Assembly (NCBI RefSeq): GCF_008065095.1 | Contig: NZ_CP042911.1 | Coordinates: 3,000,001 to 3,032,000, forward strand | From: Gemmata obscuriglobus | Lineage (GTDB): Bacteria; Planctomycetota; Planctomycetia; Gemmatales; Gemmataceae | Length of the DNA: 32,000 nucleotides | Reading direction: 5' to 3' | Shown here: positions 1-22,853 of the stretch, one piece after another | Numbering within the stretch: position 1 is the first letter of the stretch | Layout: the number at the start of each line of letters is the position of its first letter | Notes under the pieces: generated by a model | Told to the model about the DNA's origin: nothing | The model's input: the letters and a program-made list of their open reading frames with translations, nothing else | The model's database searches: none | Translations under genes and position numbers: made by a program

Positions 1-1
1 G

Positions 2-4375: not shown

Positions 4376-4632
4376 CAACCCGCTCCGCCAAGAACAAGGT
4401 AAAAGAGCGCCGCGACAATCAGCGCGATGGCGAGGAGCCAAACAGCGCGCGCCGCCGCGCGCCGAGAGGTCACTTCGAAAGCGGATCTATCCGCGTGCAG
4501 CGCTCGGCCGCTGGCAATCGCAGATTGGTTGCCGGGCTCGTCGCCGAGTGTCTCGAGCCGCCACGACTCGGGGCACCATGCCCAAGAGGCAATTTCGGAC
4601 GCCGACACGAAATCGTTACGTTCTGTGCCCAT
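4375..4632 (-). CDS. Small membrane protein carrying the N-terminal Cas4-type Cys motif (split partner of the downstream nuclease core)
   Basis: SASEIASWAWCPESWRL resembles the N-terminal Cas4/DUF83 motif that supplies the first Fe-S cysteine. It is followed by TM helix AVWLLAIALIVAALFYLVLGG. Its stop overlaps the next ATG by 1 nt. Confidence 0.5.
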   Translation of the reverse strand: MGTERNDFVSASEIASWAWCPESWRLETLGDEPGNQSAIASGRALHADRSAFEVTSRRAAARAVWLLAIALIVAALFYLVLGGAG

Positions 4633-5031
4633 TCAATCCTCAACACAATTTCTCAAGCCTGACCATTTAGAGCAGACGAAGGACCGAAGCGGAATCTCAG
4701 TTCGACCGACCTTAATAACTGCCGGCCAGCCCAAAAATTCCGTCAGCGGGTTCGGTGCAACGGTTCACACGGTTGTGTTCGACCTTTCTGCTGCTGATGC
4801 CCCGCTGTTGTGACTTTGCGACACCTTTCTTTGGTACTGCCTTTAGAGCTAACAGGGGGACCACGCCATTTGGCCGCCGGGTCCCTGGTTCGTTCCGCTT
4901 TAAAAGAAGGAGCTCGATGCGTCGATCGGTGCGCAAATCAGAAACCTGTTCATCGAGTCGCTCGGCCACTCAAAATGAGGTGGGGGACCAAGTCGCGGCT
5001 TGGCACAGCTTTACTTTCGGACGTTCACGAC

Positions 5032-5994: not shown

Positions 5995-6014
5995 GCGGGC
6001 GGCATTCGAAGAAG

Positions 6015-7010
6015 TCACAGCCCTACCTTTGCTGCGACATTCTGCCTGAACAACGATCCGTCGCGAATGTACCTTCTCATGACCAGCAGCGACTTGTGTC
6101 CCGACTGGTCTTGGATATCGCGGTCGCTCGCCCCCGCTATGGCGGCCTGCGTGATGAGCCCTGCGCGAAGCGAGTGTGCGGCGTAACCCCGCGCGGTATG
6201 TCCCGCTGCGACCAAGCTGCGTTTGACGACCTCAGCCACCGTGCGGTCGGAGAGCCGCGTACCCATGACGTGCCCGTGCTTGTTTACAGAGCGAAAGAGG
6301 GGACCCTCGAGAATTGCTGCCTGATCGACCCACGCGAGCACCGCGCGCACCGGGCAGGTACCCTCGTGCTCACCGTACGGTATCCCGAGCGTCCGACCTT
6401 CCTGCACTTGGTCCGTTTTGCTCTTTCGGATCGTGACGACGAGCCCCTCGTCCGTGAGGGCCACATCAGTCGCGTCGATCCCGACAAGCTCGCTGCGCCG
6501 CATGGCGCCAGCGAACCCGAGTAGGAGGAGCGCGCGGTCGCGAACACCTAACAACCCTTGAGGCAGGTGCTCGACCATCTCGCGGATGTGCTTCGTGAGG
6601 GTGGGCTTCTTGTGATTTTGAGCAACACCTTTATCGCGCCGGATCCCTGCCCAGACCAACTTGACCTGTGCGGATTTCGTGGGCGAGTCGAAACCCGCCG
6701 TGCGGTGGGCATCGGAGATGGACATCAGGCGGCGTTGTAACGTACTCGTCTTCAATTCCTGGGAGCGGTCGGCCAAATAGTAGGCAACCGTGTCTGGCGC
6801 GGCCGGAAGCGGGGAGCGAGCGTACTTGGCGCACCAAGAGGAGAAATCCTTCCAATCCGAGCGTTGCGCGCGGCGAGTGTTCGGGGCTCTGGACTTCTCA
6901 ACGTACCTGTCGGCCTCACTGCCGATGTCTTCGAACCGCTCGGCGTGGTGTTTCGCCTCTTTCGGAGAAGAGGTTCGGGAGGCTTGCAAATTGGCTCGTT
7001 CGGGCGACAT
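6015..7010 (-). CDS. Tyrosine site-specific recombinase (Cre/XerD-like)
   Basis: N-terminal SAM-like core-binding region (TRRAQRSDWKDFSSWCAKY..PAAPDTVAYYLAD). Catalytic region with AMRRSEL (R), HSLRAG (HxxR) and GHKSLLVMRRYIR (H..Y). The start is ATG 7010 or GTG 7037. Confidence 0.85.
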   Translation of the reverse strand: MSPERANLQASRTSSPKEAKHHAERFEDIGSEADRYVEKSRAPNTRRAQRSDWKDFSSWCAKYARSPLPAAPDTVAYYLADRSQELKTSTLQRRLMSISDAHRTAGFDSPTKSAQVKLVWAGIRRDKGVAQNHKKPTLTKHIREMVEHLPQGLLGVRDRALLLLGFAGAMRRSELVGIDATDVALTDEGLVVTIRKSKTDQVQEGRTLGIPYGEHEGTCPVRAVLAWVDQAAILEGPLFRSVNKHGHVMGTRLSDRTVAEVVKRSLVAAGHTARGYAAHSLRAGLITQAAIAGASDRDIQDQSGHKSLLVMRRYIRDGSLFRQNVAAKVGL

Positions 7011-7183
7011 GGCGGGTGTAAACGTGAGCGTCAGCACTCAGTATCGCTCACAGCGGACCGGTTGCGAAACCCGAAATCGTTGCCGTCGCTGTCGCACAAC
7101 GGCTTAATGCGTTCTGGCTCAAGCAGCGCCGAGCCGCGAGCAAGGAAGGCTGGAACCAGGAGGTAACCGTTCACGTAGCTTGA

Positions 7184-7720
7184 TTAAGCTCCGTCCCCCC
7201 GAGTAGGCCTCTCGGTGCGCTGGAAGTAAGGCGGTAGTTCTCCAGCGAGTACGACATAGAGTTGGAGGAGAGAGAACGCGATCGCAGCAGCATGCCACGC
7301 GAGGGCGAATGCGGCCCCGACGAGAACATACCGTGCCCGTGACACCTCCGTCTTCTTCCCGTGATTGTTTAACTGGTAAACATCCCGTGGTGCGAAAATC
7401 CGATTCCCATCTTCGGGAACCCCGTATGGACCGGACGTCGCAGCCAGTGCAACAAAACTCAAGAGGGACAAGGCTAAAGACAACCGAACGGCCCGCCATA
7501 CCGCGACCCGCCGCGCGTTCGGGAATGGTGATGGTAGCCCTTGCTCGTTACGAGACGCGGCCTCTAGCTGCACGAGCACAAACGTGATGGCACTGGTAAC
7601 GAACGCCCCGATGGACGGCCACCAACCCGGCAACAAGCCGAACGCGATCGAGAACAAACCCACGAGGTATAGAAGCAGTGTGGTGAGAACGATGCACAGC
7701 AATGCACGGGCCATGTTCAT
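7184..7720 (-). CDS. Hypothetical membrane protein (about 4 TM helices)
   Basis: ORF with an ATG start and four hydrophobic stretches. No recognisable family. Confidence 0.55.
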   Translation of the reverse strand: MNMARALLCIVLTTLLLYLVGLFSIAFGLLPGWWPSIGAFVTSAITFVLVQLEAASRNEQGLPSPFPNARRVAVWRAVRLSLALSLLSFVALAATSGPYGVPEDGNRIFAPRDVYQLNNHGKKTEVSRARYVLVGAAFALAWHAAAIAFSLLQLYVVLAGELPPYFQRTERPTRGDGA

Positions 7721-7764
7721 TTCCGTTCGACTCGAGCTGGCACTTTTCCGGCCGTGTCAGTTCC

Positions 7765-8029
7765 TCAGGTCGAGGTGCGTGCAGGGATGATCGAGGGTGC
7801 CACCCCTCCGGTCCTGGCGGTCTGCATGGCCTCGGCCAGGAAGGCCAACACATCGCGGCCTTGTTGCCGGCAGGTCGCCACCACGGTCAGCATTCACTCG
7901 ACGAACCGGCTTCCACCGGCCGAGTCCGTCCCGAAACTCATCTTCCGCCAACATACGGCGTGCCGCAATGCCCGCTCGGCCGCATTGTTCGTCGGCTCGA
8001 CCCCTTCGACGGCAGCGAACGTGTACAGG
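7765..8029 (-). pseudogene. 3' fragment of a single-ORF IS66-family (ISBst12-like) transposase gene, with an additional in-frame TGA
   Basis: The minus-strand translation is LYTFAAVEGVEPTNNAAERALRHAVCWRKMSFGTDSAGGSRFVE*MLTVVATCRQQGRDVLAFLAEAMQTAR...ST*. This is the conserved IS66-family C-terminus. The internal TGA at 7894-7896 sits where homologues would have an Arg-type codon. The fragment continues the 5' half found at 18566-19676. The left IS end lies somewhere in 7721-7764 and is not resolved. Confidence 0.8.
8022..8029. repeat. Target-site duplication, left copy (TGTACAGG)
   Basis: Identical 8-mer at 18566-18573, directly abutting the opposite terminal inverted repeat. Confidence 0.85.
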
Positions 8030-8060
8030 GTACGCGCTCGGCGAATCACGTGCTTGACGG
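8030..8060. repeat. IRL of the IS66-type element
   Basis: GTACGCGCTCGGCGAATCACGTGCTTGACGG. Its reverse-complement partner is at 18535-18565. Confidence 0.8.
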
Positions 8061-8099
8061 GTAAGTTATGTTGGCGGCATCCGTTCCCTTCTTCGGAGG

Positions 8100-8450
8100 A
8101 TGCCCGTGTCCGACTCGTCCGCCCGGCCCCGCTACCACCCGGCCGCCGCCCGCCGCTGGGCCGACCGCCTCGAGCGCTACGCCGCCCGCCCCACGACGGT
8201 CGCCGCCTTCTGCGCCGCCGAGGGCGTGTCACCGTCCAACTTCTACCTGTGGCGGCGGAGGCTCACCGGGGCTGGTCTCGAACCGGCCGACGGCCCGGCC
8301 GTCGTGCCCATGCACGTCGCACCACCTCCTGCGCCCGCCGCCCCGATCGAGCTGGCCCTGCCGTCCGGCACGGTCGTTCGGCTCCCCGCCGACGCCGGCC
8401 CGGAACTGGTCGTGGCCATCCTGCGCGGGCTGGAGGGGCGGCCGTGCTGA
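8100..8450 (+). CDS. tnpA: IS66 Orf1 (TnpA, HTH protein)
   Basis: FCAAEGVSPSNFYLWRRRL motif. Its stop overlaps the tnpB GTG. Confidence 0.8.
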   Translation: MPVSDSSARPRYHPAAARRWADRLERYAARPTTVAAFCAAEGVSPSNFYLWRRRLTGAGLEPADGPAVVPMHVAPPPAPAAPIELALPSGTVVRLPADAGPELVVAILRGLEGRPC

Positions 8451-8806
8451 CCCTGCCCGCCACCACCAAGCTCTGGTTCGCGGCCGCCGTGGATTTGCGG
8501 CTCGGGTACGACGGGCTGGCCAACCTGGTCCGCACCCAGCTGTCCGGCGATCCGCTGAGCGGCCACCTGTTCGTGTTCACGAATCGGTCCGCGAACCGGG
8601 TCAAGGTGCTGTACTGGGGCGGCCACGGGCTGTGCCTCTGGTGCCAGCGGTTGGAGGCCGGGCGGTACCACTTCCCTGAAGCCACCGCCACCGGGATCGA
8701 ACTGACGGCGGCTCAGTTCGCCATGATCCTGGACGGCATCGACCTGTCCCGCGTCCGCCGGTTCAAGCGGTTCTCCGCCGCCCCGCCGCCACCTCGCGCT
8801 ACCTGA
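8444..8806 (+). CDS. tnpB: IS66 Orf2 (TnpB)
   Basis: GTG start. The sequence (M)LTLPATTKLWFAAAVDLRLGYDGLANLVRTQLSGDPLSGHLFVFTNRSANRVKVLYWGGHGLCLWCQRLEAGRYHFP is the conserved IS66 Orf2 pattern. Confidence 0.85.
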   Translation: MLTLPATTKLWFAAAVDLRLGYDGLANLVRTQLSGDPLSGHLFVFTNRSANRVKVLYWGGHGLCLWCQRLEAGRYHFPEATATGIELTAAQFAMILDGIDLSRVRRFKRFSAAPPPPRAT

Positions 8807-8831
8807 CGGCGGCCGCGGGGTTGAAGGGGGC

Positions 8832-10396
8832 ATGGACGCCACCACGCTCGCCCCCGATGCGCCGCTGCCGGACGACGTGCCCACGCTCCAGGCGATGGTT
8901 CGTGAGTTGCTCACCGAACTCCAGAAGCTCCGGGCCGAGAACGCCGAACTGAAGACCAAACTCGACGCCGCCCTGAAGCACCGGTTCGGCCGCCGGAGCG
9001 AACGCCGGACGCCACCGCCGGTGCCCGCCGCCCAGAAGCCACCCCGACGCGATGAGCACGGTCGCTCGCCCTTGCCCGAGCACCTCGAACGGCGGGAGGT
9101 CGTCCACGACCTGACCGCGGCCGAGAAGCTCTGCCCGTGCTGCGGCCGGCCCCGCGCGTGCATCGGAGAGTAGACGGCCGAGCAACTCGATCTCGAACCG
9201 GCCACGTTCTTCGTCCTCCGCACGGTCAAGAAGAGCTACGCCTGCCGCCACTGCGACCCGGCGGCGGTGCCGGCCGAGCAGCGCATCACGACCGCCGGTC
9301 CGGCCCAGGTCGGCCCGATCGCCAAGGGGTTGTGCGGTCCGGGGCTGCTGACCCACGCCGTCACCGCCAAGTTCGCCGACCACACGCCGGTCCATCGACT
9401 CGCCGGCCAACTGGGCCGGTCCGGGTGACGATCGCGACCTCGACGCTGGGCGACTGGCTGTTCCGGGCGTCTGAGTTGCTGACCCCGCTGTACGAGTTGA
9501 TGCACGCGCGAGTGCTCCGGTCGCGGGTGATTCATGGGGACGACACGGGCGTGAAGTTGCGGGTGCCGGGGAGCCATCGCACGGCCAAGGCGTACATCGG
9601 GGACGCCGACCACCCGTACGTCCTGTTTGACTTCACGACCGACTACACGGCCGACGGGCCGAAGCAGTTCCTCGCGGGCTACAAGGGCTACTTGCAGGCG
9701 GACGCACTGGCCCAGTACGAGGGGTTGTACGGCGAGCGCAAGGTCCAGCACGTGTGCTGCGTCGCGCACGCCCGCCGCAAGTTCGTGGCCGCACACGACA
9801 CTGGTGACGAGCGGGCGGCCCAGGCTTTGGGGTTGTTCGGCCGGTTGTACGCGATCGAGCGGGCGCTGCCACCGCTGCTGCCGCCGTCGGACGACCCGGC
9901 AGTTCGGGAACTTCGACGGCATCGCGAAGAGCAACGCCGGGCGCTGCGGGGGCGTGACGCCGAACCGGTGTGGGATGAACTGTCGAAGTGGCTGACCGAG
10001 CAGAAGCCGGGTGCGCTGCCGAAGTCGCCGCTGGGAACCGCGATCGGGTACGCCACGAACAACTGGGGGGCGTTGAAGCGATACCTCGAACAAGGCTTCC
10101 TGGCGCTGGACAACAACCTCAGCGAGAGAACGCTCCGGGCAATCGCACTCGGACGGAACAACTGGGGCGTGTTTGGCAGTGCGGGAGGCGGGCGGACGGC
10201 GGCGGTGCTGTTCTCGGTCATCGGCACGTGCAAGCATCTGGGGCTCGATCCGTTCGCGTACCTGCGGGAGGCGCTGCCGGGGGTGTTCGCGCCAGGCGAG
10301 AATCAGACGACCGAACGACTAATGGACGGGCTACCGGACCGATGGCTGTTGAATCGAACACGGGACCAAACCGCCCCGGATGCGGCCACCCGGTAA
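8832..10396 (+). pseudogene. tnpC: IS66 transposase (TnpC) disrupted by an in-frame TAG and a 1-nt deletion
   Basis: The leucine-zipper N-terminus and CPCCG zinc motif are followed by TAG at 9171-9173 (..ACIGE*TAEQLDLEP..). The frame is then lost at the G-run 9423-9425 (..LGRSG* / VTIATSTLGDW continues in the next frame). The downstream part keeps the DDE-region motifs (HGDDTGVKL, LQADALAQY, LALDNNLSERTLR). Confidence 0.85.
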
Positions 10397-10420
10397 ACCT
10401 CGGCACCTCCCACGCTTCAA

Positions 10421-10465
10421 ACCCGCCGGTCCAAGGCCGGCGGGTCGCACTCCGTGCGTAACTAC
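10421..10465. repeat. Internal, diverged IRR-like copy at the end of the IS66 core
   Basis: Alignable to 18529-18565: shared ACCCGCC.GTC.A.GG and the G.GCGTA.C tip, with indels. The match to IRL is poorer than that of the distal copy. Confidence 0.5.
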
Positions 10466-10658
10466 CTCAGGGATACGACATCCGAACAGTTCGATATTCA
10501 GCCGACCGGGCGGACACATTCTGGCGCGTCAAGCGGGAGGACAACGCCGCCAGAGCACCGGTTCCGAGAAGGACGACGACCGACGGGGCAGCCCCGGCGG
10601 GGCGTCGGCTACCATGCCGCCCCCGCCCGACCTGAAGTTGCTTCGGACCCAACTCGGT

Positions 10659-11747
10659 TTACCAGTGCGGGGCGGCCAAGGCGTTCATCAACCGGAGCGA
10701 GAACGGTCGGGCCTGCTTCGACGCACGCGCGGGCATCTTTTCCGGCGTGGGCGTGGGCGTGGGCGTGGGGGCTGGCGGAGGCGCCCCGCAGTTGCTGCTC
10801 GGCGGGGACGAAGGCGGCGGGTTCGGGCGGTTCCCGCTCGCCGTCACCAGGGTGGCCAACCCGGCCACGATCAACGCCCCGGCCGCGATCGACTGCCAGG
10901 TCAACGGCTCACCCAACAAGACGCAGCCGAGCATCATCGCGATGATGGGGATGACCCAGGTGTGCGACATGAACACCGGGGTCGGCAGGCGCTTAAGGGC
11001 GACCATGTACGCCCCGAACCCGAGGACCGAGCTGACCGCCGTCAGGTACCCCCAGGCCGCCCAAGCCGGGGCCGTCGGTGCCGGGAGCGGTTCGCCGGCG
11101 GCGGCCGCAGCGACCGCGAGCGGGATGGCGCCCGCGATCATCTGCCAGCCGATGACGGTCCACAGGGCGTCCTTGTTCACCCGGTACTTGACCGTCAGGG
11201 CACCCGCGGCGTAGCACGCGGGGCCGAGCACCAGGGCCGCGAGGTTGGTCAGGCCCGCATCGACCGTGACGCCGGCGGGCAGGACCAGCACGCCCACGCC
11301 CACCGCCCCGAGGGTCATGCCGAGCAGACCGCGGGAACTCGGCCGCCGGTGCGCGATGACGGCTTCGAGGCCGGTCACGATGATCGGCCCGAGGCCGAAG
11401 AAGAGCGACACGAGCCCGGAGCCGGCCGAGCGGGACGCCAGCGTCGCCAGCCCCGTCCCGCCGCCGCAGAGCAGCAGCCCGGCGGCCGCGAGCGGCAGGA
11501 TTTGCTGGCGGGCGGGCATCACCGGCCGGCCCAGCGCCCGCAGGACGAGGAGCACCGCGGTCCCGGCGGCCGCGAATCGCGACGCGGCCATGGTGAAGGG
11601 CGGCCAGCCGCCGTGCGGGCCAACGGCGACCCGCATCGCGAGGAACGTCGTACCGGTGATGACACACAGGGCCACGAAGCAGGCCATGCCGAGCGGGCTC
11701 AGGCGCGCCCACCACGGGGCCGCTTGAGGGCGGGAGTTGTTCGTCAT
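10659..11747 (-). CDS. EamA/DMT-superfamily transporter with Pro/Thr-rich C-terminal tail
   Basis: ATG at 11747 is preceded by GGAGGTG. The protein has ten-helix-type hydrophobicity and an EamA-like repeat. The tail reads PAPTPTPTPTPEK. Confidence 0.8.
   Translation of the reverse strand: MTNNSRPQAAPWWARLSPLGMACFVALCVITGTTFLAMRVAVGPHGGWPPFTMAASRFAAAGTAVLLVLRALGRPVMPARQQILPLAAAGLLLCGGGTGLATLASRSAGSGLVSLFFGLGPIIVTGLEAVIAHRRPSSRGLLGMTLGAVGVGVLVLPAGVTVDAGLTNLAALVLGPACYAAGALTVKYRVNKDALWTVIGWQMIAGAIPLAVAAAAAGEPLPAPTAPAWAAWGYLTAVSSVLGFGAYMVALKRLPTPVFMSHTWVIPIIAMMLGCVLLGEPLTWQSIAAGALIVAGLATLVTASGNRPNPPPSSPPSSNCGAPPPAPTPTPTPTPEKMPARASKQARPFSLRLMNALAAPHW
10744..10767. repeat. (GGCGTG)x4 tandem hexanucleotide repeat inside the transporter tail
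   Basis: Four perfect units read directly in the sequence. On the minus strand they encode the (PT)n stretch. Confidence 0.9.
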
Positions 11748-11917
11748 TGTCACCTCCGCGAGGGTAGGAACCAACCGGCTTTCGATGCTGGCCGGCTGCA
11801 CCTCTCTAACGGACTTAGTCCTCGTCGGTGTTTCAAGTATTTGCATTCAAAAACCACACGGCCTTGGCGAATGGTACGCCAAGGCCGTGTGGTTTCGTTA
11901 GGTCGAACGGGTCTGAA

Positions 11918-13150
11918 TCACTCCGCGTTCGCGTAGTACAGTGGGCGGGTGCGGTTCTTGCGCTCGTCGCGGAATCCGAACAGCTTCAGCCCGTGGTACC
12001 GCCCCTCGAGGTCGAACAGAGGCCCGTACACCAGCTCGCCGCCCTCCTTGCGCGCGACCTGCCCGTTCGAGTGCATCGGCAGCAGGTACGGGCGGGCGTA
12101 AGAGTTCGACGGGGCCAGCGCCAGTCGCGGCTCACCGGGCTTGGCGTGCACCGAAGCGCGGATGTACAGATCGGTGCCGACGGCCTCGCGCACGACCCGT
12201 TCGACCAGCCCGAGGTCGCGCACGGCGTGGTTGTTCGCGGTGTACCCGACCGAGAGGTCGGCCGCCAGGAACCACAGGTCCTCGGCGTCCTTCGCCGCGA
12301 TGCTGCCGACTTGGTGCCCGCCGACGGCCCCGAACACCTGGACGGTGTGCTCGTAGGACCAGCCGCGGGCGCGGAGGTTGACGCTCGACACCAGGCTGTC
12401 CGCCTGAGACGCCAGCTGAGCCCGGAAGTCTTCGTTGCTGTTCGCCTGCTCGCGCACGTTGACGATCTCGTCGATAACGAACTCAAACCACCGGTCGTCG
12501 AGCACGTTGCGCGGAGACGCCAGCACGACGTCGAGCGCGCCGAGGAACGCCCGCGCGTCGTCTTGCAGGGTCTCCAGGAACAGGTCGGCCTGGCGGGCGT
12601 CCAACCCCGCGTCCGCCGAGTGCAGGTGCCCGTCAGCGACGAGCACGAGCCGGGTCGGCACGTCGGTCACCTCGGTCAGAGCGTCGGCGACCCCCTGGAG
12701 CACGTTGACGGACGTCCAGTCTGCGAGGTCGGGGGTGAGCGTACGGCCCGTCTTCAGCTCGTTCCCGATCTTGACGCCGCCGGTGATCATGGCCACGGTG
12801 AACTGCTTGTGGCTCAGCATCCCGTTGATCTTGTCGAGCAACCCGGTGCGGACGCCCAGATCGTCGAACAGGGTCGCTTTCACGCTCAGCGACGCGGCCT
12901 TGAGGACGGCCAGGGCGTTCTCCGCCGGGCTCAGGTCGGGCTTGCACTTTTTCAGGAGTTCGTCCTTCCAGTGCTCGCGCCCCTGGCGCAGTTCCAGGGT
13001 GAGGGACTGCAGGGCGTCCGGGGTCAGGACCGTCATCGGCGGCGGCGGGAAGGTGCGCCCTGCCTCGATCTGTTTGCACGCCTCCGGGAGGATGGACAGC
13101 TTGTCGAGGCGGGAGGCGTCGGACAGGGCGGACCGGAAGGGCTGGGCCAT
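11918..13150 (-). CDS. Hypothetical enzyme, tentatively DIT1/PvcA-like (isonitrile synthase family)
   Basis: Soluble 410-aa ORF. TPDLADW...PTRLVLVADGHLHSADAGLD and ...LYIRASVHAKPGEPRLALAP....LLPMHSNGQV resemble the PvcA patterns (pDlgEe..., ivSDGrvF.d, iRLSIH...K..i.l...tPWH). The call rests on recalled motifs only. Confidence 0.35.
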   Translation of the reverse strand: MAQPFRSALSDASRLDKLSILPEACKQIEAGRTFPPPPMTVLTPDALQSLTLELRQGREHWKDELLKKCKPDLSPAENALAVLKAASLSVKATLFDDLGVRTGLLDKINGMLSHKQFTVAMITGGVKIGNELKTGRTLTPDLADWTSVNVLQGVADALTEVTDVPTRLVLVADGHLHSADAGLDARQADLFLETLQDDARAFLGALDVVLASPRNVLDDRWFEFVIDEIVNVREQANSNEDFRAQLASQADSLVSSVNLRARGWSYEHTVQVFGAVGGHQVGSIAAKDAEDLWFLAADLSVGYTANNHAVRDLGLVERVVREAVGTDLYIRASVHAKPGEPRLALAPSNSYARPYLLPMHSNGQVARKEGGELVYGPLFDLEGRYHGLKLFGFRDERKNRTRPLYYANAE

Positions 13151-13345
13151 GATGACACTCGCGTCGGGTGGCAGTGAGCAGCCCGACCGACCTTCGGCCG
13201 GGCTACCCCGACTACGGGCGAGCGTATTTCCGTCGTTGCAGAGATGTTGCTGTGGTTTTTTTCAATGCCGTTAACCCATGCAGAGCAATGACTTAGAGGC
13301 CATGAGAACTTATTTTTCACCGCATCACTTTTTTCGTGCAACAAC

Positions 13346-13367
13346 CGCCCGTTCAGCGCCCGTTCAG
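13346..13367. repeat. Perfect tandem 11-bp direct repeat (CGCCCGTTCAG x2) in a divergent intergenic region
   Basis: Read directly in the sequence. It lies between the divergently oriented genes 11918-13150 (-) and 13504-14247 (+). Confidence 0.9.
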
Positions 13368-13503
13368 GGGGGTAGAGGGGAAATCAGCCAGCAAGAAAAC
13401 CGTCTTGGAATTTGACTTTCGCGAAATCTTCGCTGCAAGCCGAGCAGCTTCATGTGTTCGAAGGTTGGAACTGAGAAAGCCTCACCACGAAGGAGAACAC
13501 CCC

Positions 13504-14247
13504 GTGGCTGACTCCACCGGCCCGAACCAGGTGCCGATTAACGACGCCGTTAACGCGGGGCCTGACCCGCCTGTTCCGCTCGAATCGCCCCTCCCGCCGG
13601 GCTGGACCGACCAGCCGTGCGGTTGCTCGCGCCGGTGGCACTACGCCGACGAGGAGTACCGGTGCTTCGTTTACACGCGGTACACGATCTGCTCCCCGGC
13701 GTGTACCTGCGTCCTGACCACTGAAGTGGCGCGGGGCCAAGCAACGGCGCGCCGTCTGGGCCAACAAAGCGCAGACTGCGATGCCAGCGCAGCGCTGCAC
13801 GCCTGGAAAGTCCACCTCCTCTTCACCAACCGGAACTTCGACGAGCAGCAGGGAGATGATCAATTCAGCCGGTACCTCGCTCAGATTGCCTGGAACAGTG
13901 CGCGCGAGTGGTACCGCGGCTTCTACCACACTGACACCTTGATCGGTCCGATTTTGCCGGTCTCCTTCGTCAACCCCGACGACGGCTTGGCCGCCGGCGC
14001 CGTGCCGGAACCGGCCGACCAGGACGAGCCACAACGCCAGACCGACGAGCGCATCTGGATCGAAGAGCTCGCGGAACTGATCCCGAACGAATGGGATCGC
14101 AACGTCTTCCTCGCGCGCCACAGGGACGGCCTCTCGGCCGCGGAAATCGCGCAGCAAGCGGGCTGCGCCCCGTACGCCGTTTATCAGTCGCTGTGGGGCA
14201 GTTATGCGATTCTGCACGCCCGCCTTCTTGACCAGTGCGACGGCTAA
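13504..14247 (+). CDS. Atypical ECF-like sigma-70 family protein with Cys-rich N-terminal extension
   Basis: GTG at 13504 is preceded by GAAGGAGAA. Region-2-like FSRYLAQIAWNSAREWYR. Region-4-like DRNVFLARHRDGLSAAEIAQQAGCAPYAVYQSLWGSYAILHARL. The N-terminal part contains CGCSRRWHYADEEYRCFVYTRYTICSPACTC. Confidence 0.55.
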   Translation: MADSTGPNQVPINDAVNAGPDPPVPLESPLPPGWTDQPCGCSRRWHYADEEYRCFVYTRYTICSPACTCVLTTEVARGQATARRLGQQSADCDASAALHAWKVHLLFTNRNFDEQQGDDQFSRYLAQIAWNSAREWYRGFYHTDTLIGPILPVSFVNPDDGLAAGAVPEPADQDEPQRQTDERIWIEELAELIPNEWDRNVFLARHRDGLSAAEIAQQAGCAPYAVYQSLWGSYAILHARLLDQCDG

Positions 14248-14353
14248 ACGCCAGCAAACCACCGGGCGACAGAATTCTGTCGCCCGAGTTCCCGCAGCGC
14301 GGGAGTAACAAGGTTGAAGTGACCTTGTCATCCTCGCAACAAGGAGTCATTCC

Positions 14354-15058
14354 GTGAACGACAACGAGCTGGATAGCAACGGCCGGGACTCGCCGAGCGA
14401 GCCAAAATACGAACCCAGGAACATTTCGCCCCTGCGGTACCTGTCCGTCCTCACGGGCGAATCGGAGTGGACGCCGGAGGAGCAGGACGCGATCGAACAA
14501 GACCCCGTTCTTCGGCAGAGGATCACTCGCCTGATGCTGGCGATGTACGCCCCTCTTCTGGGTCCCAAACCGACACCGCCCGATGCGAAGCCAAAGGGCC
14601 CCGTCGCCTGGCGCGAACCCAAAAAGTTCAAAGACGCTCCGTGTGAGGATGAGGTCGTGGCGGCCGGCCTCGGAGCCCACGCCGGTGCCGCGGCCGCGCC
14701 GAAAGAGGAGTTCACTTCCGCGTCTCGCGTGTGGACGGGAAAGCCGGCGTGGTCGAATCGCCCGTCCGATTGGCCTGAAGAACTGTCGGTGGTTTACGAA
14801 GTTCTTGACGGCGACCTGGAAGTCACCATCAAGGGGCTCGAGGACGTGAGCACGGCGCGTTACCAAGCGGTACTGGTCGCGGTCGGGAATCCCGCCATTC
14901 CCATCGATTCCTGGTTTCGGACGTCGAAGTTCAAGGCGCGTACGCTGCAACTCGACCAATCATCGAGAGCGGGCGCACAACAGCTGTACGTTTTTCTCGC
15001 CGAACGGCGGGGGAAGAAGACCGAGCTCGTCGCCCAGCCGATTCCCATTCGGCTCTGA
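14354..15058 (+). CDS. Hypothetical protein (no TM helix, Pro/Lys-rich linker)
   Basis: GTG start 7 nt after AAGGAG (14341-14346). Same strand as, and directly downstream of, the sigma-like gene. No recognisable domain. Confidence 0.55.
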   Translation: MNDNELDSNGRDSPSEPKYEPRNISPLRYLSVLTGESEWTPEEQDAIEQDPVLRQRITRLMLAMYAPLLGPKPTPPDAKPKGPVAWREPKKFKDAPCEDEVVAAGLGAHAGAAAAPKEEFTSASRVWTGKPAWSNRPSDWPEELSVVYEVLDGDLEVTIKGLEDVSTARYQAVLVAVGNPAIPIDSWFRTSKFKARTLQLDQSSRAGAQQLYVFLAERRGKKTELVAQPIPIRL

Positions 15059-15091
15059 TGTCGCCCGTGGCCAACAACTGGAGGAGAACTC

Positions 15092-15748
15092 ATGAACGTG
15101 CTCTCTCGCCTCGTGCTCGCGGTCGTCGCTGCGCTCTGGCTGCCTTTGGCCGCTCTGGCCGATGGAACCCAGCCGATGGCCGTCCAGGCCGGCTCCTGGA
15201 CGGTGGGCGAGAACGGCGTCAACGTCGACGCGGCGTGCTTGAAGAAGAAGTTGAAGGAGCCCACCGCCGGTACCTCGCTCAGCCTGCACGAGGGCAAGGT
15301 AGTCGTCGAGGTCCACGATGGCACCAAGTGGGTCGAGCACTCTACCCTCGCGGACGCTGTGACGAACGGTCACCTCGTGATCGAGGGAATCACGCAGGGC
15401 CGCCATCCCGACACGGGGGAAACCATCGGCCGGTTCGACGCGATCAAGATCAGGCCCGGTACTAAGCCGCTCGACGGGAATGTGCGGGTCACCTTCCGCG
15501 AACCGACGGTTTTCGGGGCCGAGGGCACGAAGGTCGCGGATTTCAAGGAAGCCGCCGGCTTGGTCGGTGACATCCAGCAGTACGCCAAGACCTTTGGCCT
15601 GCAGCCCAACGAGGCGCGGTTCATCGCCCAGCACGCCTACTGGGCTTTGGACCGGCAAGGCAAGGCGACTAAGGACGAGGTGGCGAAGCTGACGAAGATG
15701 AGCGAGGAAGAGTTCACCAAGTGGCTGATTAAGAACATGAAACCTTAA
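15092..15748 (+). CDS. Hypothetical secreted protein
   Basis: Signal-peptide-like N-terminus MNVLSRLVLAVVAALWLPLAALA/DG. It starts 33 nt after the preceding gene. Confidence 0.6.
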   Translation: MNVLSRLVLAVVAALWLPLAALADGTQPMAVQAGSWTVGENGVNVDAACLKKKLKEPTAGTSLSLHEGKVVVEVHDGTKWVEHSTLADAVTNGHLVIEGITQGRHPDTGETIGRFDAIKIRPGTKPLDGNVRVTFREPTVFGAEGTKVADFKEAAGLVGDIQQYAKTFGLQPNEARFIAQHAYWALDRQGKATKDEVAKLTKMSEEEFTKWLIKNMKP

Positions 15749-15792
15749 CGGTTGCGTCAGCGACTCCGTCAAGTGCGAATAAAATCTACGTC

Positions 15793-15825
15793 GCCGGGGT
15801 TCGAGGACCATCCTCGAGCCCCGGC
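15793..15825 (+). terminator. Strong GC hairpin (14-bp stem, 5-nt loop) between the secreted-protein gene and the CHAT gene; possible terminator or attenuator
   Basis: GCCGGGGTTCGAGG-accat-CCTCGAGCCCCGGC with a single G.U pair. There is no clear U-tract after it. Confidence 0.35.
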
Positions 15826-15894
15826 TTGCGACTTGAAAGCCTTTCAACTTGCTGTTCCTGGGCAGGTGCCTAGGTGCCTGGAGCCGGCTCAAAG

Positions 15895-18507
15895 ATGAAC
15901 TCGCACACCGACTCGCCGAACCAATCGGGTGAGAGTCACGAGGAAACCGACCAGTCGGCGCCTGACGAGGTCAGTACTCCGCCGTTTACTTTGCAACTTC
16001 GGCTCGCGCGGCAGGCACTCGCGAACAATAATCCAGAGGCCGCGCTCTGTTTCCTCTATCCGGTGTTTGGCCTCAAACCTCACTCGTTTCACCTCCGGCG
16101 TCCGTTCCTCCCGTCCCCATCCAACTTCTCGTCGAAGATCACGGAGGTTGTGCCGGAAGCCAGCGCACTTTTGTTGGTGGCGGCAGCGCAGACCGGCCAG
16201 ATTCGTGATGCCCTTGCGGTCGCGATGGCGGCAAACGGGCTGGTGCAGACCGTCAACGGCAACCACAAGGTCTTTTCGAGTGCGAGTGACTGGCTCGAGG
16301 TTTTGGAGAAAGTAAGCGACCTTAACCTGCAACGGGGAACCGCGGCTCGGCTTGCTCGCTGGGCGCGAGAAGGGGTTCGCGTTCTTCGCGAACTTAGCGG
16401 GGCTGAATTGATTGAGGACGTCGTCGGTCGGGACACTTTGAACGAGTGGTTCGAACAACCGCATCTCTTGATCGATCAACCTGCCAACGCCGAGGCACTC
16501 GCCGAATACTTGGCGGGCGAGCCGGTAACAGACCGGGAGATCGCCACGCTCGACATCGACGCCTTCATGCACGCGATTGAGCATCGTGATGGCTCTATCC
16601 CCGAAGGTGCGGTCGCCATCGCAATTGGACTGGCTCACGGCCTCAAAGCCCGCTCGTCTGAGGCACAGATTCCGGCGTTCATCAAGGGCGTGTTCGGCAA
16701 GGCCGTTACCGGCTCTTTCCTCGCGGAGCTCGAACGTCGGCGCGTTCAACCGGAACGCGCCGTGGAACTCGCGCTCTTCGCCCTCGAACACGACCAGGGG
16801 CTGACCGACGCGGGCCGGGCCGAGTTAACCGGGCGAGTGGTCGAACGTCTGGCCCAGCTTCCGCCGACTGCCCGCAAGTACCGCGAGCGGTTGCTCGGCC
16901 AGGCCGTTGAGTGGGCGCTCACGAACCAGGCCAGCGGGCATAGTCGGGAGAACTGGCCTGTGGTCGTGCTGTGCTTGGACCGCTTCCCCGGACCGCCCGC
17001 GCCGCGCGAGGCGTCCCCCGTCGTTGAGCTCGAGCGGGGTTCGGCTCCTATTACCGGACCAACGGACGAGGTCGGGGCGGACGTCTTGGCGGCTGGCGAA
17101 TCGGACGGGGCGCCCGGCCTGACGGTTTCGGCGGCCGGGGAAGAGGAACCGAGGGCCGTGGGCGCCTTTTCGTACGACGAGCTGAGCTCGGCCGCCCTGG
17201 AAGCTGAGCGTGCGGACGAGACGCTTCCGCGCCGCGGTGCGCTCGAGAACACGCCCCGGCTGCCAGGCGATGGCCACCGCACTCTGGGCGAAGTGGTTGA
17301 CCAAAGTGACCCTCGCCTCGCCTCGCTGCTCGGCCGCTATCCCGGTGACCCGGAGCGACCCGTCGTCTTGCTCGGTTTTCAGCCCGTCGGCCAACGCCTG
17401 CTCGTCTACACCGTCGAAGCGTCGGAAGGGAACCCACTTCGCTGGCGAGCGCGAGCTCTTGATGGCGCCGTGGACACGATCCAACGCGCCGTCGAAACCT
17501 TCGACGGCTCAATCGCGCGGGCCTGGCAGGATCATAAGCGCGCCGAGGTGCCCGACCGGAGCCGCGCGCTGGCCGACTCACTGCTCCACGAACTCGGCGC
17601 GCATCTCGCCGAGGTTGATGACCTGCTCAGCGCGGCGGTGTCCGACCTGTTGGCCGCCCACGATCCCGAGCCCAACATCCTGCTCACCGCCGCCGGCGCG
17701 GCCCAAGCCCTCCCGCTTGATTTGTTGACCGTCCGGTTGGCCGGCGGTTCGGAGCGGCCGCTCGTGCACTGCGGGAGCACCGTTCGTTGGACACCGGGGC
17801 TGGTGCTTCAGGAGCGAATGGACACCACCGGCAGGCGGTCGGGTGAGGGGACCGGCCGCTCGCTGGGGTGGCTCGCGTACCTGCCCGAACACGACCCAAA
17901 CGGTCGGTTCGGCGGCTTCTTCAGAGAGAAGGAGGTCGAGAGCGAAAAGGATCGCTGGTCGCCCGGGGCGAAGTTCCTCCAGCGAACGAAGGGCCGTGGG
18001 TGCCAAGGGACGCAGGCGACCGCAGGGAATCTGCGGTCGTATTCGGCTGGTCAGTTCAGCGACCTTCTCGTGTTGGCCCACGGCTGCTGGGACCGAGGCG
18101 CGGTCGTGCTTTGGGATGAGTTGGTGGATTCCCTTGGGGCGGCCCAGTTGGACACGTTGTTCCTGGTCTCGTGCACGATAGGCCGACTCGGGTGGTCAGG
18201 TGCTGACGAGCCGATCAGTCACAGCTTGTTGTCCAACATTCTCGAGCAGGGGTCGGTCTCGCACCTGCTAGCCTTCCGCCACACGATTCCCGATACACCG
18301 GCGGTAAAGTTCGCTCTCCGAGTGCGCGAAGATACGGGTCGCGATCTGGCGCTCGCGCGGAGCGAGTTGTTAAAGTCTTGGTTCCCAAATGGGAGCGCGG
18401 CAACGAATGTTTGCCACCAACACCAAGTGAACACAGGTGATGCGTTCGAACGTTTCGTTGGTGCGGTCTCGATTGCGTACTCGGCAAAACTGGAACCGGT
18501 CCGGTGA
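15895..18507 (+). CDS. Large CHAT-domain (caspase-like) protease with ~560-aa helical N-terminal region
   Basis: The C-terminal ~300 aa show the CHAT pattern: ILLTAAGAAQALPLDLL, the His in LLVLAHGCW (codon 18079-18081) and the Cys in LFLVSCTIG (codon 18172-18174), then GSVSHLLAFRHTIPD. ATG at 15895, with an alternative GTG at 15874. Confidence 0.75.
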   Translation: MNSHTDSPNQSGESHEETDQSAPDEVSTPPFTLQLRLARQALANNNPEAALCFLYPVFGLKPHSFHLRRPFLPSPSNFSSKITEVVPEASALLLVAAAQTGQIRDALAVAMAANGLVQTVNGNHKVFSSASDWLEVLEKVSDLNLQRGTAARLARWAREGVRVLRELSGAELIEDVVGRDTLNEWFEQPHLLIDQPANAEALAEYLAGEPVTDREIATLDIDAFMHAIEHRDGSIPEGAVAIAIGLAHGLKARSSEAQIPAFIKGVFGKAVTGSFLAELERRRVQPERAVELALFALEHDQGLTDAGRAELTGRVVERLAQLPPTARKYRERLLGQAVEWALTNQASGHSRENWPVVVLCLDRFPGPPAPREASPVVELERGSAPITGPTDEVGADVLAAGESDGAPGLTVSAAGEEEPRAVGAFSYDELSSAALEAERADETLPRRGALENTPRLPGDGHRTLGEVVDQSDPRLASLLGRYPGDPERPVVLLGFQPVGQRLLVYTVEASEGNPLRWRARALDGAVDTIQRAVETFDGSIARAWQDHKRAEVPDRSRALADSLLHELGAHLAEVDDLLSAAVSDLLAAHDPEPNILLTAAGAAQALPLDLLTVRLAGGSERPLVHCGSTVRWTPGLVLQERMDTTGRRSGEGTGRSLGWLAYLPEHDPNGRFGGFFREKEVESEKDRWSPGAKFLQRTKGRGCQGTQATAGNLRSYSAGQFSDLLVLAHGCWDRGAVVLWDELVDSLGAAQLDTLFLVSCTIGRLGWSGADEPISHSLLSNILEQGSVSHLLAFRHTIPDTPAVKFALRVREDTGRDLALARSELLKSWFPNGSAATNVCHQHQVNTGDAFERFVGAVSIAYSAKLEPVR

Positions 18508-18534
18508 GGCCCATTCGCTGGTGAAGGTACCCGC

Positions 18535-18565
18535 CCGTCGAGGGTGTGATTCACCGGGCGCGTAC
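18535..18565. repeat. Distal IRR of the IS66-type transposition unit
   Basis: CCGTCGAGGGTGTGATTCACCGGGCGCGTAC. Its reverse complement matches IRL at 25 of 31 positions. It is followed immediately by the TSD copy. Confidence 0.8.
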
Positions 18566-18573
18566 TGTACAGG
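18566..18573. repeat. Target-site duplication, right copy (TGTACAGG)
   Basis: Identical to 8022-8029. Confidence 0.85.
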
Positions 18574-19676
18574 GCCGGTTCGACGGCCATCAACTCGCGG
18601 CACACGCCCGCCGTGATCGCGCACGCGCCTTCAGCCCCTCGCTTGAGGAAGCCCCGCACCCCGGCCCGGAGCCACCCGAGGTAGGTCTGTCGGAACCCGC
18701 GCCGCGTCAGCGTCCCGTCCCGCACCCGCTTCCACTGGTCGAGCAGGATGTCGGCGTAGGTCAACAGGTCCTCGCCGACCCCCGACCCGCCGTTCCCCCG
18801 GTCGATCATGGCCTGGAAGTCTCGTCGGAGGTGCGCCCAGCAGACTTGGCGCTCGCACACAGGGAGGTGGTCGTAGGCCGAGTATCGGTCCGTGGTCAGC
18901 ACTCCGGGATGGCCCGCGATCAACTCGCCCAGCACCTTCCGGGCACGGGACAGGCGGACCAGGAACACGGTCACGCGGGCGGTCACCGCGGCCCACAGCC
19001 AGCCCCGCTTGCGCCCCTCCGGCCACCCGGTCTCGTCCACGTTCGCGGGCTTCCCAACGACGTAGGCACGGGCCTCCTCAACGACCGGCCCCAAGGCGAC
19101 CGCGGCCTTCCGCTGGAGGCCGCATACGGCGGCCGGGCTGATCGGTACCCCGGACAGGTCCTGGCACAGCCGCGCGACGCCCCGCTTGCCGATCCGGTAC
19201 GCCCCGCTGAGGAGCGCGCACACCGCCTGGACCCGCGGCCCGTACCCGCCTCGGGCATCACCCGGTAGGGGCGGGCGGTTGATACGCCCGCAGTTCGGGC
19301 ACGCGAGCCGGTGCCGACGATATTCGGTCACCTGCGGGCAAACCGGCGGTAACTCGATGATCTGGTGGCGGAGCGGTTGCGCATCACCCCCGGAGAGCGC
19401 GTGTGCGCACCGGTCACAGGTGCTCGGCCGCAACTCGATGACGTTGTCCGCGGGCAGGTCGGAACGGGAGTGCTTAGGGTGCCCCGGCTGGCCGCCCTTG
19501 CGCCTGCTGGATGGGGCCTTCGGCGGGGCGGCCTTGACGTGCGGCGGGTCGGACGACGGGGGCTTTGAGGAGTTCGTCGAGTTCTGCCCGAGCCGGGCTT
19601 CGAGGTAACGGATGTATGCCTGCACCGCCGGGGGAAGCGCGTCGAAGACCTCAGGTGGTAGCGTTGGAGATGCCAT
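18566..19676 (-). pseudogene. 5' fragment of the same single-ORF IS66-family (ISBst12-like) transposase gene
   Basis: MASPTLPPEVFDALPPAVQAYIRYLEARL..NSSKPPSSDPP..RRKGGQPGHPKH..CDRCAHAL..ACPNCGR..ANVDETGW..LTTDRYSAY..VCWAHLRRDF..CRELMAVEPALY, where homology stops at the insertion point. The rest of the 498-aa track ORF is read-through into the IRR and the antisense strand of the CHAT gene. The right IS end is approximately 19700-19730 and is not resolved. Confidence 0.8.
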
Positions 19677-19750
19677 GCCGCAGAAGGAATACGGAGCAAG
19701 ACTCACAGCGGCCACAACCGTGAACGCCTACACCAGGAGATAAATAGCTG

Positions 19751-20033
19751 AGACTTTAGTACTACTCCGTTACTTCGCCACAACTAATTAAATTGTCGCG
19801 ATTTATGGCGATCTACACCTACAGGTCCGTGCCCCCGCAATGGGTTCAAATCCCAGCGATTCTGGCTAGTCCGTTCACGAGAGCAGCAAACATTCCGCCG
19901 TGGCAGTGAGCATTCCATTTGACTCAAGTCCAGATCCTACAAGATGTTCCGTCAAGGTGCATTCCGGAGGGGTGTGCATAACACGTTGTAAAACAAGCAG
20001 TTGCGGCGAGGTAACGGAGTAGTATTAGAGGCT
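19751..20033. repeat. IR-bounded ~280-bp non-coding element (MITE-like)
   Basis: Terminal inverted repeats: 19757-19779 TAGTACTACTCCGTTACTTCGCC and 20005-20028 GGCGAGGTAACGGAGTAGTATTAG. They share a 14-bp perfect core (TACTACTCCGTTAC) with 2-3 mismatches overall. The interior is visibly AT-richer than its surroundings and has no ORF. Confidence 0.5.
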
Positions 20034-20074
20034 CTGAGGGGCCGGCAATGCACGCCGCCGGCACCTGGAATTGC

Positions 20075-21475
20075 CTAGCGGATTACCCTGGCCACCGCAT
20101 CCAGTGCCTCTTCTGGTACGAAGAGACGATCCGTCTCTGGCAAGGGCTGGGAAAGTGTTCTGAAGCTGTCATCGTCCCGAATAGGGGCCGCCCCTCCTGA
20201 GTCATCTACAAAATAACCCCATTCGCTCGGCGCCTTCGATAACAATGAAAACTTCGGGTGGTCCCGGACGAGATAAGATTCTGGCTCCTTGAAGCCACTA
20301 TCGATAAGCGCCTTGTTGATCTTCGGATACGCCTCGGGTGATTTCAGAAAACTACTAATCTGTTCAGAAGATCGCGGAACAGATTTGAATAAGGTGCGGG
20401 TTCGTATCCTCTTGGCGAGATCGACCACGATGGGATCCGCTCCATCAGCCTGAGCCACAATTTCGACAAGCACGTGCAAGGCGAAGTCATCAGCGGACAA
20501 CAGGGCTTGAAGTGTCACCACTTTGCCGGCGACCATGTCCATCAAAGGCCCAACGATTCGGTCGCGAGAGAAAGCCGCGAATTGTCCGTCGCGCACGACG
20601 GTTTTTAAGCGGCGCAGAAAGAGCGCCACCATCCCCTCCGCCGCCCTGACGGTGCGGTGGTAGTACACGGCTTCGTACATGGCACGTCGTGCCACCAAAA
20701 AATGCTCGACCACGCGTCTCGATTTGGCCCGATCGAATCCCACGACAAGTGTCTTTTCGTTTGTTGTCCCCAGTGCGCACGTCGAGATCAACCGACTGAG
20801 GTCATATCCCCCAAACGTAACGCCGCACTGCTGGCTGTCACGGCGAAGGAAATCGCTGCGGTCGACGTCGATATCGCTATCCAGTAGTCGCGGCAGGTAG
20901 GGCAGGTGATACTCGCCAAGCAAAAATGCACCGATCCGTTCAGCCATCCCGCGCTCGTAAGATTCGAGCATTTGGTGCAGTTCGCCCTCGGGCCAAGCGA
21001 GCAGAGCCTGTCCCACGAGAACGTGCCACTTCAGCCTGCGCCCTCCCACGGCGCCTGCTGCGGCTGGAAGCCCGAGCCCCTGTCTCCAATTACCCTCGTC
21101 GTAGTCCTCACCAATGATCTCGCGCTCCCATGCGTGCGAGAGGGGCCCGTGCCCGAGGTCGTGAAACAGCGCCGCGAGTGCGAAGTCCCTGATCGCCACC
21201 TCGTCGGGGAGCAGAAACGGTGTGATCGAGTCGCGCCCTACTTCTTGAATGTGCCTGCCAAAGAGTACCGCGAGGTAGGCAGCGCCGATTGAATGAACGA
21301 GTCGAGAGTGCTCGCCGCCGGGGAACACTAGATGCACAAGCCCGAGCTGGCGGATGTGGCGGAGCCTCTGAATTTCGCGGGTACGAAGCACCTCCACGAT
21401 GAGCGTCTCCATGCCCCTAAATTCCATGAGGCCGTGGACACTGTCTTGGATACGCCTTACACGACTCGACCGCAT
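20075..21475 (-). CDS. SAMHD1-like HD-domain phosphohydrolase (dNTP triphosphohydrolase-like, COG1078 type)
   Basis: IQDSVHGLMEF...REIQRLRHIRQLGL..FPGGEHSRLVHSIGAAYLA...ALFHDLGHGPLSH...LDSDIDVDRSDFLRRDSQQCGV. The H..HD..D metal ligands are all present. Confidence 0.8.
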   Translation of the reverse strand: MRSSRVRRIQDSVHGLMEFRGMETLIVEVLRTREIQRLRHIRQLGLVHLVFPGGEHSRLVHSIGAAYLAVLFGRHIQEVGRDSITPFLLPDEVAIRDFALAALFHDLGHGPLSHAWEREIIGEDYDEGNWRQGLGLPAAAGAVGGRRLKWHVLVGQALLAWPEGELHQMLESYERGMAERIGAFLLGEYHLPYLPRLLDSDIDVDRSDFLRRDSQQCGVTFGGYDLSRLISTCALGTTNEKTLVVGFDRAKSRRVVEHFLVARRAMYEAVYYHRTVRAAEGMVALFLRRLKTVVRDGQFAAFSRDRIVGPLMDMVAGKVVTLQALLSADDFALHVLVEIVAQADGADPIVVDLAKRIRTRTLFKSVPRSSEQISSFLKSPEAYPKINKALIDSGFKEPESYLVRDHPKFSLLSKAPSEWGYFVDDSGGAAPIRDDDSFRTLSQPLPETDRLFVPEEALDAVARVIR

Positions 21476-21478
21476 AGC

Positions 21479-22807: not shown

Positions 22808-22853
22808 TTTATGCTGCCCTGTGGTGAAGCTGCTACGTTGGTTGCTGCCAGTC

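Follow-up and report, generated by a model that had tools for sequence, protein, structure and literature searches.

Elements of the IS66 family of insertion sequences (ISs) classically carry the three genes tnpA, tnpB and tnpC, have terminal repeats beginning 5'-GTA and make 8-bp duplications. The ISBst12 group of this family comprises elements with a single open reading frame (ORF), for example ISDge4 (PMC12898284). The concept of the transporter IS (tIS) includes the IS66 family, with passengers located downstream of the DDE gene (bioRxiv 10.1101/2021.05.26.445724; PMC12888890). Examples of such tIS66 elements are ISPa75 (fosZ), ISPsp18, ISPa120, ISPa128 and ISPsy43 (PMC12888890). In this study, a stretch of 32,000 nt of Gemmata obscuriglobus DNA (assembly GCF_008065095.1, contig NZ_CP042911.1, positions 3,000,001 to 3,032,000; hereafter the window) was analysed, in which an element of 10,536 bp (the insert) interrupts the transposase gene of another element (the recipient). 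Our analysis shows that the window contains two IS66-family elements, one nested in the other, within a genomic island of low GC content, and that the 10.5 kb of the insert probably moved as one unit.

Comparison with the described elements revealed that the insert has the known tIS66 layout. It shares with the tIS66 elements one tnpA-tnpB-tnpC module, IS66-type ends and a target-site duplication around the whole unit, and in both the passengers follow the DDE gene and lie inside the right repeat. The insert differs from them in size, ends and host. While ISPa75 is 2,996 bp long and carries one passenger gene, the insert is 10,536 bp long and carries six passenger ORFs, which include no resistance gene. 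Its ends start with GTACGC, compared with GTAAGC or GTAACC in the tIS66 examples, its host is a planctomycete and only one, decayed copy of it is known. The recipient is a single-ORF IS66 element of the ISBst12 group and appears to resemble ISGob2. Like the ISBst12 group and the ISGob2-like elements of Gemmataceae, it has a single DDE_Tnp_IS66 transposase, short GTA-type ends and an 8-bp duplication; unlike them, it has an extra passenger of 178 amino acids (aa), has lost seven codons, carries an in-frame TGA and is interrupted, and its nearest intact relative is 84% identical. Both types of element have already been described; modestly new are how large the cargo is and the evidence of repeated capture in one clade.

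Footprint of one IS66 element within another

Analysis of the window confirmed that one transposable element entered an IS66-family transposase gene and left a perfect 8-bp duplication. The two copies of this duplication, TGTACAGG, are located at 8022-8029 and 18566-18573. The 8-mer is present exactly twice in the window against 0.21 copies expected, and two or more copies were found in none of 100 shuffled sequences. It also agrees with the target preference of the insert's clade, which is T/A at position 3 and A at position 6. The insert between the two copies spans 10,536 bp, its first letters being GTACGCGC at 8030 and its last GCGCGTAC at 18565. In-silico removal of 8030-18573 regained EPALYTFAAVEGVEPTNNAAERALR, with the codons GCC CTG TAC ACG TTC, and the rejoined frame of the recipient runs for 455 codons on the minus strand from 19676 down to 7765, reading through CRELMAVEPALYTFAAVEGVEPTNNAAERALR. 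The junction residues E366-A373 are invariant and ungapped in five intact relatives (73-85% identity), and the insertion target CCTGTACA, coding for Ala-Leu-Tyr-Thr, is also found in the DNA of the recipient's relatives.

The ends of the insert were identified by pairing of its terminal repeats and by comparison with canonical relatives, that is, cargo-free elements of the same clade. The left terminal repeat, GTACGCGCTCGGCGAATCACGTGCTTGACGGG (8030-8061, plus strand), and the right terminal repeat, GTACGCGCCCGGTGAATCACACCCTCGACGGG (18534-18565, minus strand), both start with GTACGCGC and match at 26 of 32 positions, or 25 of 31 on a shorter count. A 20-nt degenerate pattern of the repeat matches only the two ends in the window, against 0.01 matches expected. 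The left end (8030-8123) matches the 5'-end profile of the canonical relatives with E = 9e-22, and the left repeat is nearly identical to that of L014, one of these relatives. For the opposite end, thirteen canonical relatives, each with its last 160 nt, were combined into a 3'-end profile of 164 positions, in which the repeat spans positions ~129-164. The right repeat matches positions 145-164 of this profile at 18546-18565 (envelope from 18526) as well as positions 1-38 of the 5'-end profile.

Analysis of the ORFs next to the left repeat showed that the insert is itself an IS66-family element, making this a case of IS66 within IS66. Its tnpA (8100-8450, plus strand) codes for an apparently intact IS66 accessory protein of 116 aa, scoring 52.7 bits against NCBIfam NF047593 (IS66 TnpA; cutoff 28). 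Its tnpB (8444-8806, plus strand), which overlaps the end of tnpA by 7 nt, codes for an apparently intact IS66 Orf2 protein of 120 aa matching Pfam PF05717 (TnpB_IS66) with E = 7.5e-32. TnpA and TnpB each align over their full length to their L014 counterparts. The third gene, tnpC (8832-10396, plus strand), is an IS66 DDE transposase gene and now a pseudogene. It matches LZ_Tnp_IS66 and DDE_Tnp_IS66 (PF03050, E = 2.5e-64) in Pfam and scores 247 bits against NCBIfam NF033517 (cutoff 180). Comparison with the intact relative P0126 by tblastn revealed three lesions. A TAG at 9171-9173 replaces Gln115 with a stop, 1 nt is deleted near 9425, and HLWT is lost through an in-frame deletion of 12 nt near 9592. 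The insert thus displays the features of three-ORF IS66 elements, namely tnpA, tnpB and tnpC, 5'-GTA terminal repeats and an 8-bp duplication. Rejoined without its cargo, it is 2,467 bp long compared with 2,494 bp for L014, with 84.7% DNA identity. Three independent Logan contigs (L003, L004 and L006) all stop at window positions ~8939-8960, within the 5' part of tnpC; the stops may reflect a repeat common to diverged copies or a drop in coverage.

The recipient spans 7163-19731 and is 2,025 bp long without the insert. This span was assigned because the end pattern of its relatives occurs at both sites, each abutted by ACCAGGAG. The end pattern, GTARVCGTTCACGG, was taken from the closest intact relative, whose six identical copies (L007-L012) on alignment give the ends GTAGACGTTCACGG ... 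CCGTGAACGGTTAC. The recipient repeat downstream of its transposase, GTAACCGTTCACGT (7163-7176, plus strand), has one mismatch to this pattern, and the repeat upstream of the transposase, GTAGGCGTTCACGG (19718-19731, minus strand), matches it exactly; the upstream end lies 55 nt before the ATG, compared with 48 nt in the relatives. The outer target-site duplication ACCAGGAG occupies 7155-7162 and 19732-19739, and these two copies abutting the recipient ends are the only ones in the window. The 5' part of the recipient transposase gene (18574-19676, minus strand) comprises codons 1-368 and holds DUF6444, zf-IS66 and DDE_Tnp_IS66 domains. Its 3' part as reconstructed (7765-8029, minus strand) comprises codons 369-455 and the stop codon and carries the in-frame TGA at 7894-7896, which on alignment to relatives stands in place of a conserved arginine. 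The seven lost codons were located near the N-terminus. This transposase is the single IS66 DDE ORF of the recipient and no tnpA or tnpB is present; the only other ORF inside its ends codes for an unrelated, hydrophobic protein of 178 aa (7184-7720, minus strand), which has no Pfam, NCBIfam or PADLOC match.

Among proteins related to the recipient transposase, the nearest intact one (P0001) is 84% identical and is encoded by six identical copies in one 9.24-Mb genome; a 72%-identical protein (P0089) is named 'ISGob2' by a source. No closer intact copy than 84% was found in the search for relatives, and none in the same genome. The ORF at 23134-24591 was considered as an intact copy of the recipient and rejected, being an unrelated ISKra4-like transposase. 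At the position of the 178-aa ORF the relatives L007-L012 (ERZ26867449 contig_1) each carry a different passenger ORF, Imm32 (PF15566). The duplication is 9 bp rather than 8 bp in five of these six copies.

A reading made earlier from the letters of this stretch (the sequence-only reading) had proposed a perfect 8-bp duplication, inverted repeats matching at 25 of 31 positions, block ends at 8030 and 18565, restoration of the five codons upon deletion of 8030-18573 and an in-frame TGA in the recipient, and our analysis reproduced each of these. Its proposal of one IS nested in another also holds and is refined here, since the insert too belongs to the IS66 family and has a layout of the tIS66 type. 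The recipient had been taken to be about 1.5 kb long and to extend over 7765-19676; that interval is its transposase reading frame, and the whole element, with its own duplication, is larger. The five intact relatives examined do not differ across the junction. Of the further intact copies of the recipient that this reading proposed to look for, none was found in this genome, the best intact relative being 84% identical and located in another genome.

Cargo at the right end of the insert and in its relatives

Downstream of tnpC the insert remains colinear with the canonical relatives over 10397-10462 (plus strand), a region that includes a conserved hairpin at 10422-10444. Positions 2-117 of the 3'-end profile match the window at 10340-10454 (E = 5e-14) and the remainder of the match is found at the far end of the unit. 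Because the 3'-end profile is split in this manner, the cargo is placed between the hairpin and the right-repeat core. The cargo block measures ~8.07 kb (10463-18533, each boundary +/- ~10 nt), and the outer end of the right repeat lies 8,169 nt past the tnpC stop. The far end of the unit consists of the repeat core only (~32-40 nt) and no second IS66 module was found there. No IS sequence is duplicated within the unit, and the DNA downstream of the module resembles the module in the terminal repeat only. A compound (composite) transposon was ruled out, as the cargo does not lie between two IS copies. The ends of the cargo block share no direct or inverted repeat of at least 9 nt, and neither terminal repeats of its own nor a flanking duplication was found. 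No transposase, recombinase or mobility gene was detected in the block. The GC content is 0.654 in the cargo, 0.70 in the IS66 module and 0.61-0.62 in the flanks.

Relatives of the insert were compared at 77 loci fetched with TnpC, which were then scanned for repeats and duplications. Gemmataceae and other Planctomycetota proved to be rich in relatives with a TnpC identity of 82-85%. The canonical ones (L014, L016, L020-L023, L028, L035-L048 and others) are 82-85% identical to the insert in TnpC and 84.7% in DNA. They have the same left repeat, hairpin and right-repeat core as the insert, together with 8-bp duplications and the same target preference, and differ from it in having no cargo. Where several copies or both flanks were present, they measure 2,478-2,529 bp and have a perfect 8-bp duplication. 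Their left repeat reads GTACGCGC(C/T)CGGCG(A/G)ATCACGT; tnpC is followed by a conserved hairpin and then by the right-repeat core GTGATTCGCCGGG..GT(T/A)AC, and the element ends 87-158 nt past the tnpC stop.

Further relatives carry passenger DNA. L052/L065, L049, L062 and L064 belong to the same IS66 clade as the insert, and in them too a distant right repeat is separated from tnpC by passenger DNA; their cargo is unrelated to that of the insert. L052 (5,560 bp) has the same split-end layout as the insert, its two parts matching positions 2-108 and 101-164 of the profile. L065 is the L052 element with an extra 1.5-kb insertion in tnpC; the two are 99.8-99.9% identical and are located at two loci with different duplications. 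Because near-identical copies sit at two loci with different duplications, split-end units of this kind move whole. L049 (12.3 kb), L062 and L064 differ from the insert in that their cargo lies between a nearly complete but defective near repeat, which they have kept, and a second, distant repeat, which points to a different route to cargo. The duplications are perfect in L049 and L064, and perfect or matching at seven of eight positions across L049, L052, L064 and L065; for L062 neither a left end nor a duplication was available for checking. Overall, this small survey shows that the clade has captured cargo beside its right end more than once and by two routes, one with a split end and one with a duplicated end.

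The cargo of these relatives was also inspected. The 3.1-kb cargo of L052 (11695-14919, minus strand), also present in L065, is one long convergent ORF that joins Cas4-like, RNase_H_2 and IS66 DDE domains, an unusual fusion. The 12.3-kb relative L049 (9196-21488), from a Singulisphaera metagenome-assembled genome, is flanked by the perfect duplication CCAGCACG; encoded in its cargo are two fasciclin proteins, an NmrA/DUF2867 protein, an SRPBCC protein, a cytidine deaminase and a photolyase-related protein. The far end of L049 is a copy of ~97 nt of an IS 3' end with 80% identity, and capture between two different copies is therefore suggested for it.

Order of events and probable movement of the 10.5-kb unit

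The only order that can be read from the locus is recipient first and insert second. The sequence-only reading had called the footprint unambiguous and datable; it is real and clean, and what it yields is this order and no date. The insertion of the recipient is shown by its own footprint: a 2,025-bp single-ORF IS66 element with one passenger ORF inserted upstream of an integrase gene and duplicated ACCAGGAG. In the second step, a 10,536-bp IS66-derived transporter IS would have inserted into the recipient transposase gene at CCTGTACA. In this step TnpC, together with the accessory proteins TnpA and TnpB, would recognise the two terminal repeats beginning GTACGCGC..., and cuts staggered by 8 bp followed by repair would give the duplication TGTACAGG. 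The cargo occupies the sole place that spares all transposition functions, from the post-tnpC hairpin to the right-repeat core. The footprint of this second insertion is plain, and its movement with the cargo as one unit is probable. In the third step both elements decayed in place, as is shown by the tnpC lesions in the insert and by the TGA and the interruption in the recipient. Both elements are now immobile unless served in trans.

A chimeric assembly and a resemblance arising by chance were also considered as explanations of the structure; nothing was found in their favour, and both are already refuted. The window is 100% identical over 21 kb to the fetched loci CP025958.1 (4.997-5.018 Mb) and draft contig ABGO01000027. 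An 80-nt probe across the left insert junction was found verbatim in CP025958.1 and in a Logan contig from SRR5887501, and one across the right junction in CP025958.1, in the ABGO draft and in a Logan contig from SRR5887367. Misassembly at 8030 or 18565 is thus excluded because identical junction sequences are present in a complete genome, in a draft that was assembled separately and in Logan contigs derived from different read sets, and the boundaries that the sequence-only reading drew from the repeats and the duplication stand. The low expected counts given above for the 8-mer (0.21) and for the repeat pattern (0.01) speak against chance, and the probability left to either explanation is negligible.

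Movement of the 10.5 kb as one unit has several points against it. Copies at different sites with different duplications, the tIS criterion, were found for L052/L065 and not for the insert. Exact look-ups of a 410-aa cargo protein and of TnpB returned this locus only, and the junction of cargo and repeat was absent from the metagenome collection, so that the search for further copies of the unit proposed by the sequence-only reading gave none; because of this, we can only infer movement as a unit. The GC content of the cargo is intermediate between that of the IS module and that of the island, with which local acquisition stays compatible. The two terminal repeats of the insert differ at six of 32 positions, and because its own tnpC is dead the activity of the insert is unreadable from the letters. 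Some of these points would also suit a plain 2.47-kb IS66 element that inserted first, with the TGTACAGG duplication, and received the 8-kb block later by illegitimate recombination between hairpin and right repeat. Under such a history no second copy of the 10.5-kb unit would be called for, the GC content of the cargo is nearer to that of the island than the IS module's is, and the complementary split of the 3' end is expected from either order of events. However, a random 8-kb insertion would have to hit the permissive stretch of ~70 nt between the tnpC stop and the repeat core, which is ~3% of the 2.47-kb IS, whereas this position is expected under unit transposition, as only such captures stay mobile. 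In addition, the block lacks ends, a duplication and a recombinase that would belong to it and shows no sign of independent mobility, and L052/L065 show the same layout moving as a unit at two loci. For these reasons movement as one unit is favoured and the late arrival of the cargo is considered unlikely.

Another history, skipping of the right end, was judged to be less likely still. The insert would have lost its own right repeat by internal deletion, leaving GCGTAAC at 10456-10462, and would have used the solitary right repeat of another copy 8 kb downstream, thereby mobilising the intervening DNA. L049, L062 and L064, with a defective near repeat and a second, farther repeat, provide a parallel for this, and the GCGTAAC heptamer resembles GCGTTAC, the tip of L014. 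A search for a second right repeat around 10400-10500 with up to three mismatches, however, found none beyond this 7-mer resemblance, and a 7-mer match is weak evidence. No part of the 3' end is duplicated in the insert: the near part breaks off at profile position 117, and the remaining repeat core comes from the far part. It is unlikely that two deletions occurred independently and yet have endpoints that complement each other exactly, and module and downstream DNA are similar only in the repeat itself. Transposition of the insert with its cargo as one unit is hence preferred over both alternatives.

Passenger genes, surrounding island and significance

Inside the terminal repeats, 10463-18533 contains six cargo ORFs unrelated to transposition. 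The first (10659-11846, minus strand) codes for a transporter of the EamA (drug/metabolite) family, with a Pfam EamA match at E = 1.4e-23 and an NCBIfam YedA-like match below cutoff. The second (11918-13150, minus strand) codes for a 410-aa protein of unknown function with a weak, sub-threshold match to DIT1_PvcA (E = 0.002). A sequence search among solved structures gave no match for this protein, and no relatives were found in a metagenome scan or in a genome-collection scan, the latter missing even the source genome. The third ORF (13336-14247, plus strand, 303 aa) codes for an ECF-type sigma-70-like protein that matches NCBIfam TIGR02937 (sigma70-ECF) at E = 1e-8, below cutoff, and Pfam Sigma70_r4_2 weakly; the gene is called as 247 aa in public assemblies. 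The fourth (14354-15058, plus strand, 234 aa) and the fifth (15092-15748, plus strand, 218 aa, with a hydrophobic N-terminus) code for unknown proteins without a family match. None of the cargo proteins matched a defence-system model in PADLOC.

The sixth ORF (15895-18507, plus strand) codes for a near-orphan protein of 870 aa. A word-based search returned only the protein itself, and an exhaustive search among 1.84 billion gave three other representatives. The motifs AHGC and LVSC are conserved in its C-terminal half. A sequence search of solved structures with the cargo protein listed at 877 aa was empty, and the relatives of the 870-aa protein have no Pfam match. For a model of low confidence (pLDDT 54), the top structural matches were TPR-CHAT/Csx29 and separase, at TM values of only 0.19-0.25. 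Taken together, the C-terminal half may possibly be a CHAT/separase-like (caspase-fold) protease, which is a tentative assignment.

Analysis of the surroundings revealed a mean GC content of 63.5% in the window, with up to ~70% in stretches with transposases and ~61% in the flanks. The neighbourhood at 1-7100 and 20075-23257, with a GC content of ~0.61, looks like a defence or integration island. A tyrosine integrase is encoded at 6015-7037 on the minus strand. An HD-domain protein adjoins a Ser/Thr kinase with PD-T4-6/mad6-like PADLOC matches, and Cas4 and TIR/SEFIR genes are found further left in public gene calls. The 485-aa ORF at 23134-24591 (plus strand), located in a patch of 72% GC, codes for an ISKra4-family-like transposase (NCBIfam NF033572, E = 7e-40, below cutoff) and represents a third mobile element in the window. 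Just outside the recipient end, a pair of 36-nt inverted repeats (19750-19785 and 19999-20034, 86% match) encloses 213 nt; its arms contain GTAACGGAGTAGTA and the structure looks like a small non-autonomous (MITE-like) element. A tRNA or attachment-site remnant was considered near 19800-19870 and rejected, as no tRNA and no meaningful Rfam match were found there.

The results leave knowledge of IS66 transposition itself unchanged. The base-exact boundaries of two mobile elements correct the annotation of the island, where public gene calls fuse or truncate genes, and a large six-gene case is added to the short list of passenger-carrying IS66 elements. This is useful for the curation of insertion sequences and for the study of orphan-gene gain in planctomycete genomes. 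The 10.5-kb unit is among the largest cargo-bearing elements in the present sample. A wider proposal, which at present seems rather doubtful, is that this Gemmataceae IS66 clade is a habitual gene shuttle that repeatedly takes passengers of 1.4 to ~10 kb, always at a single permissive site beside its right end; the 10.5-kb unit would then be moving a lineage-restricted module among planctomycete genomes. If this were true, the mobile module would consist of an ECF-like sigma factor, a possible CHAT-type protease, an exporter and orphan proteins.

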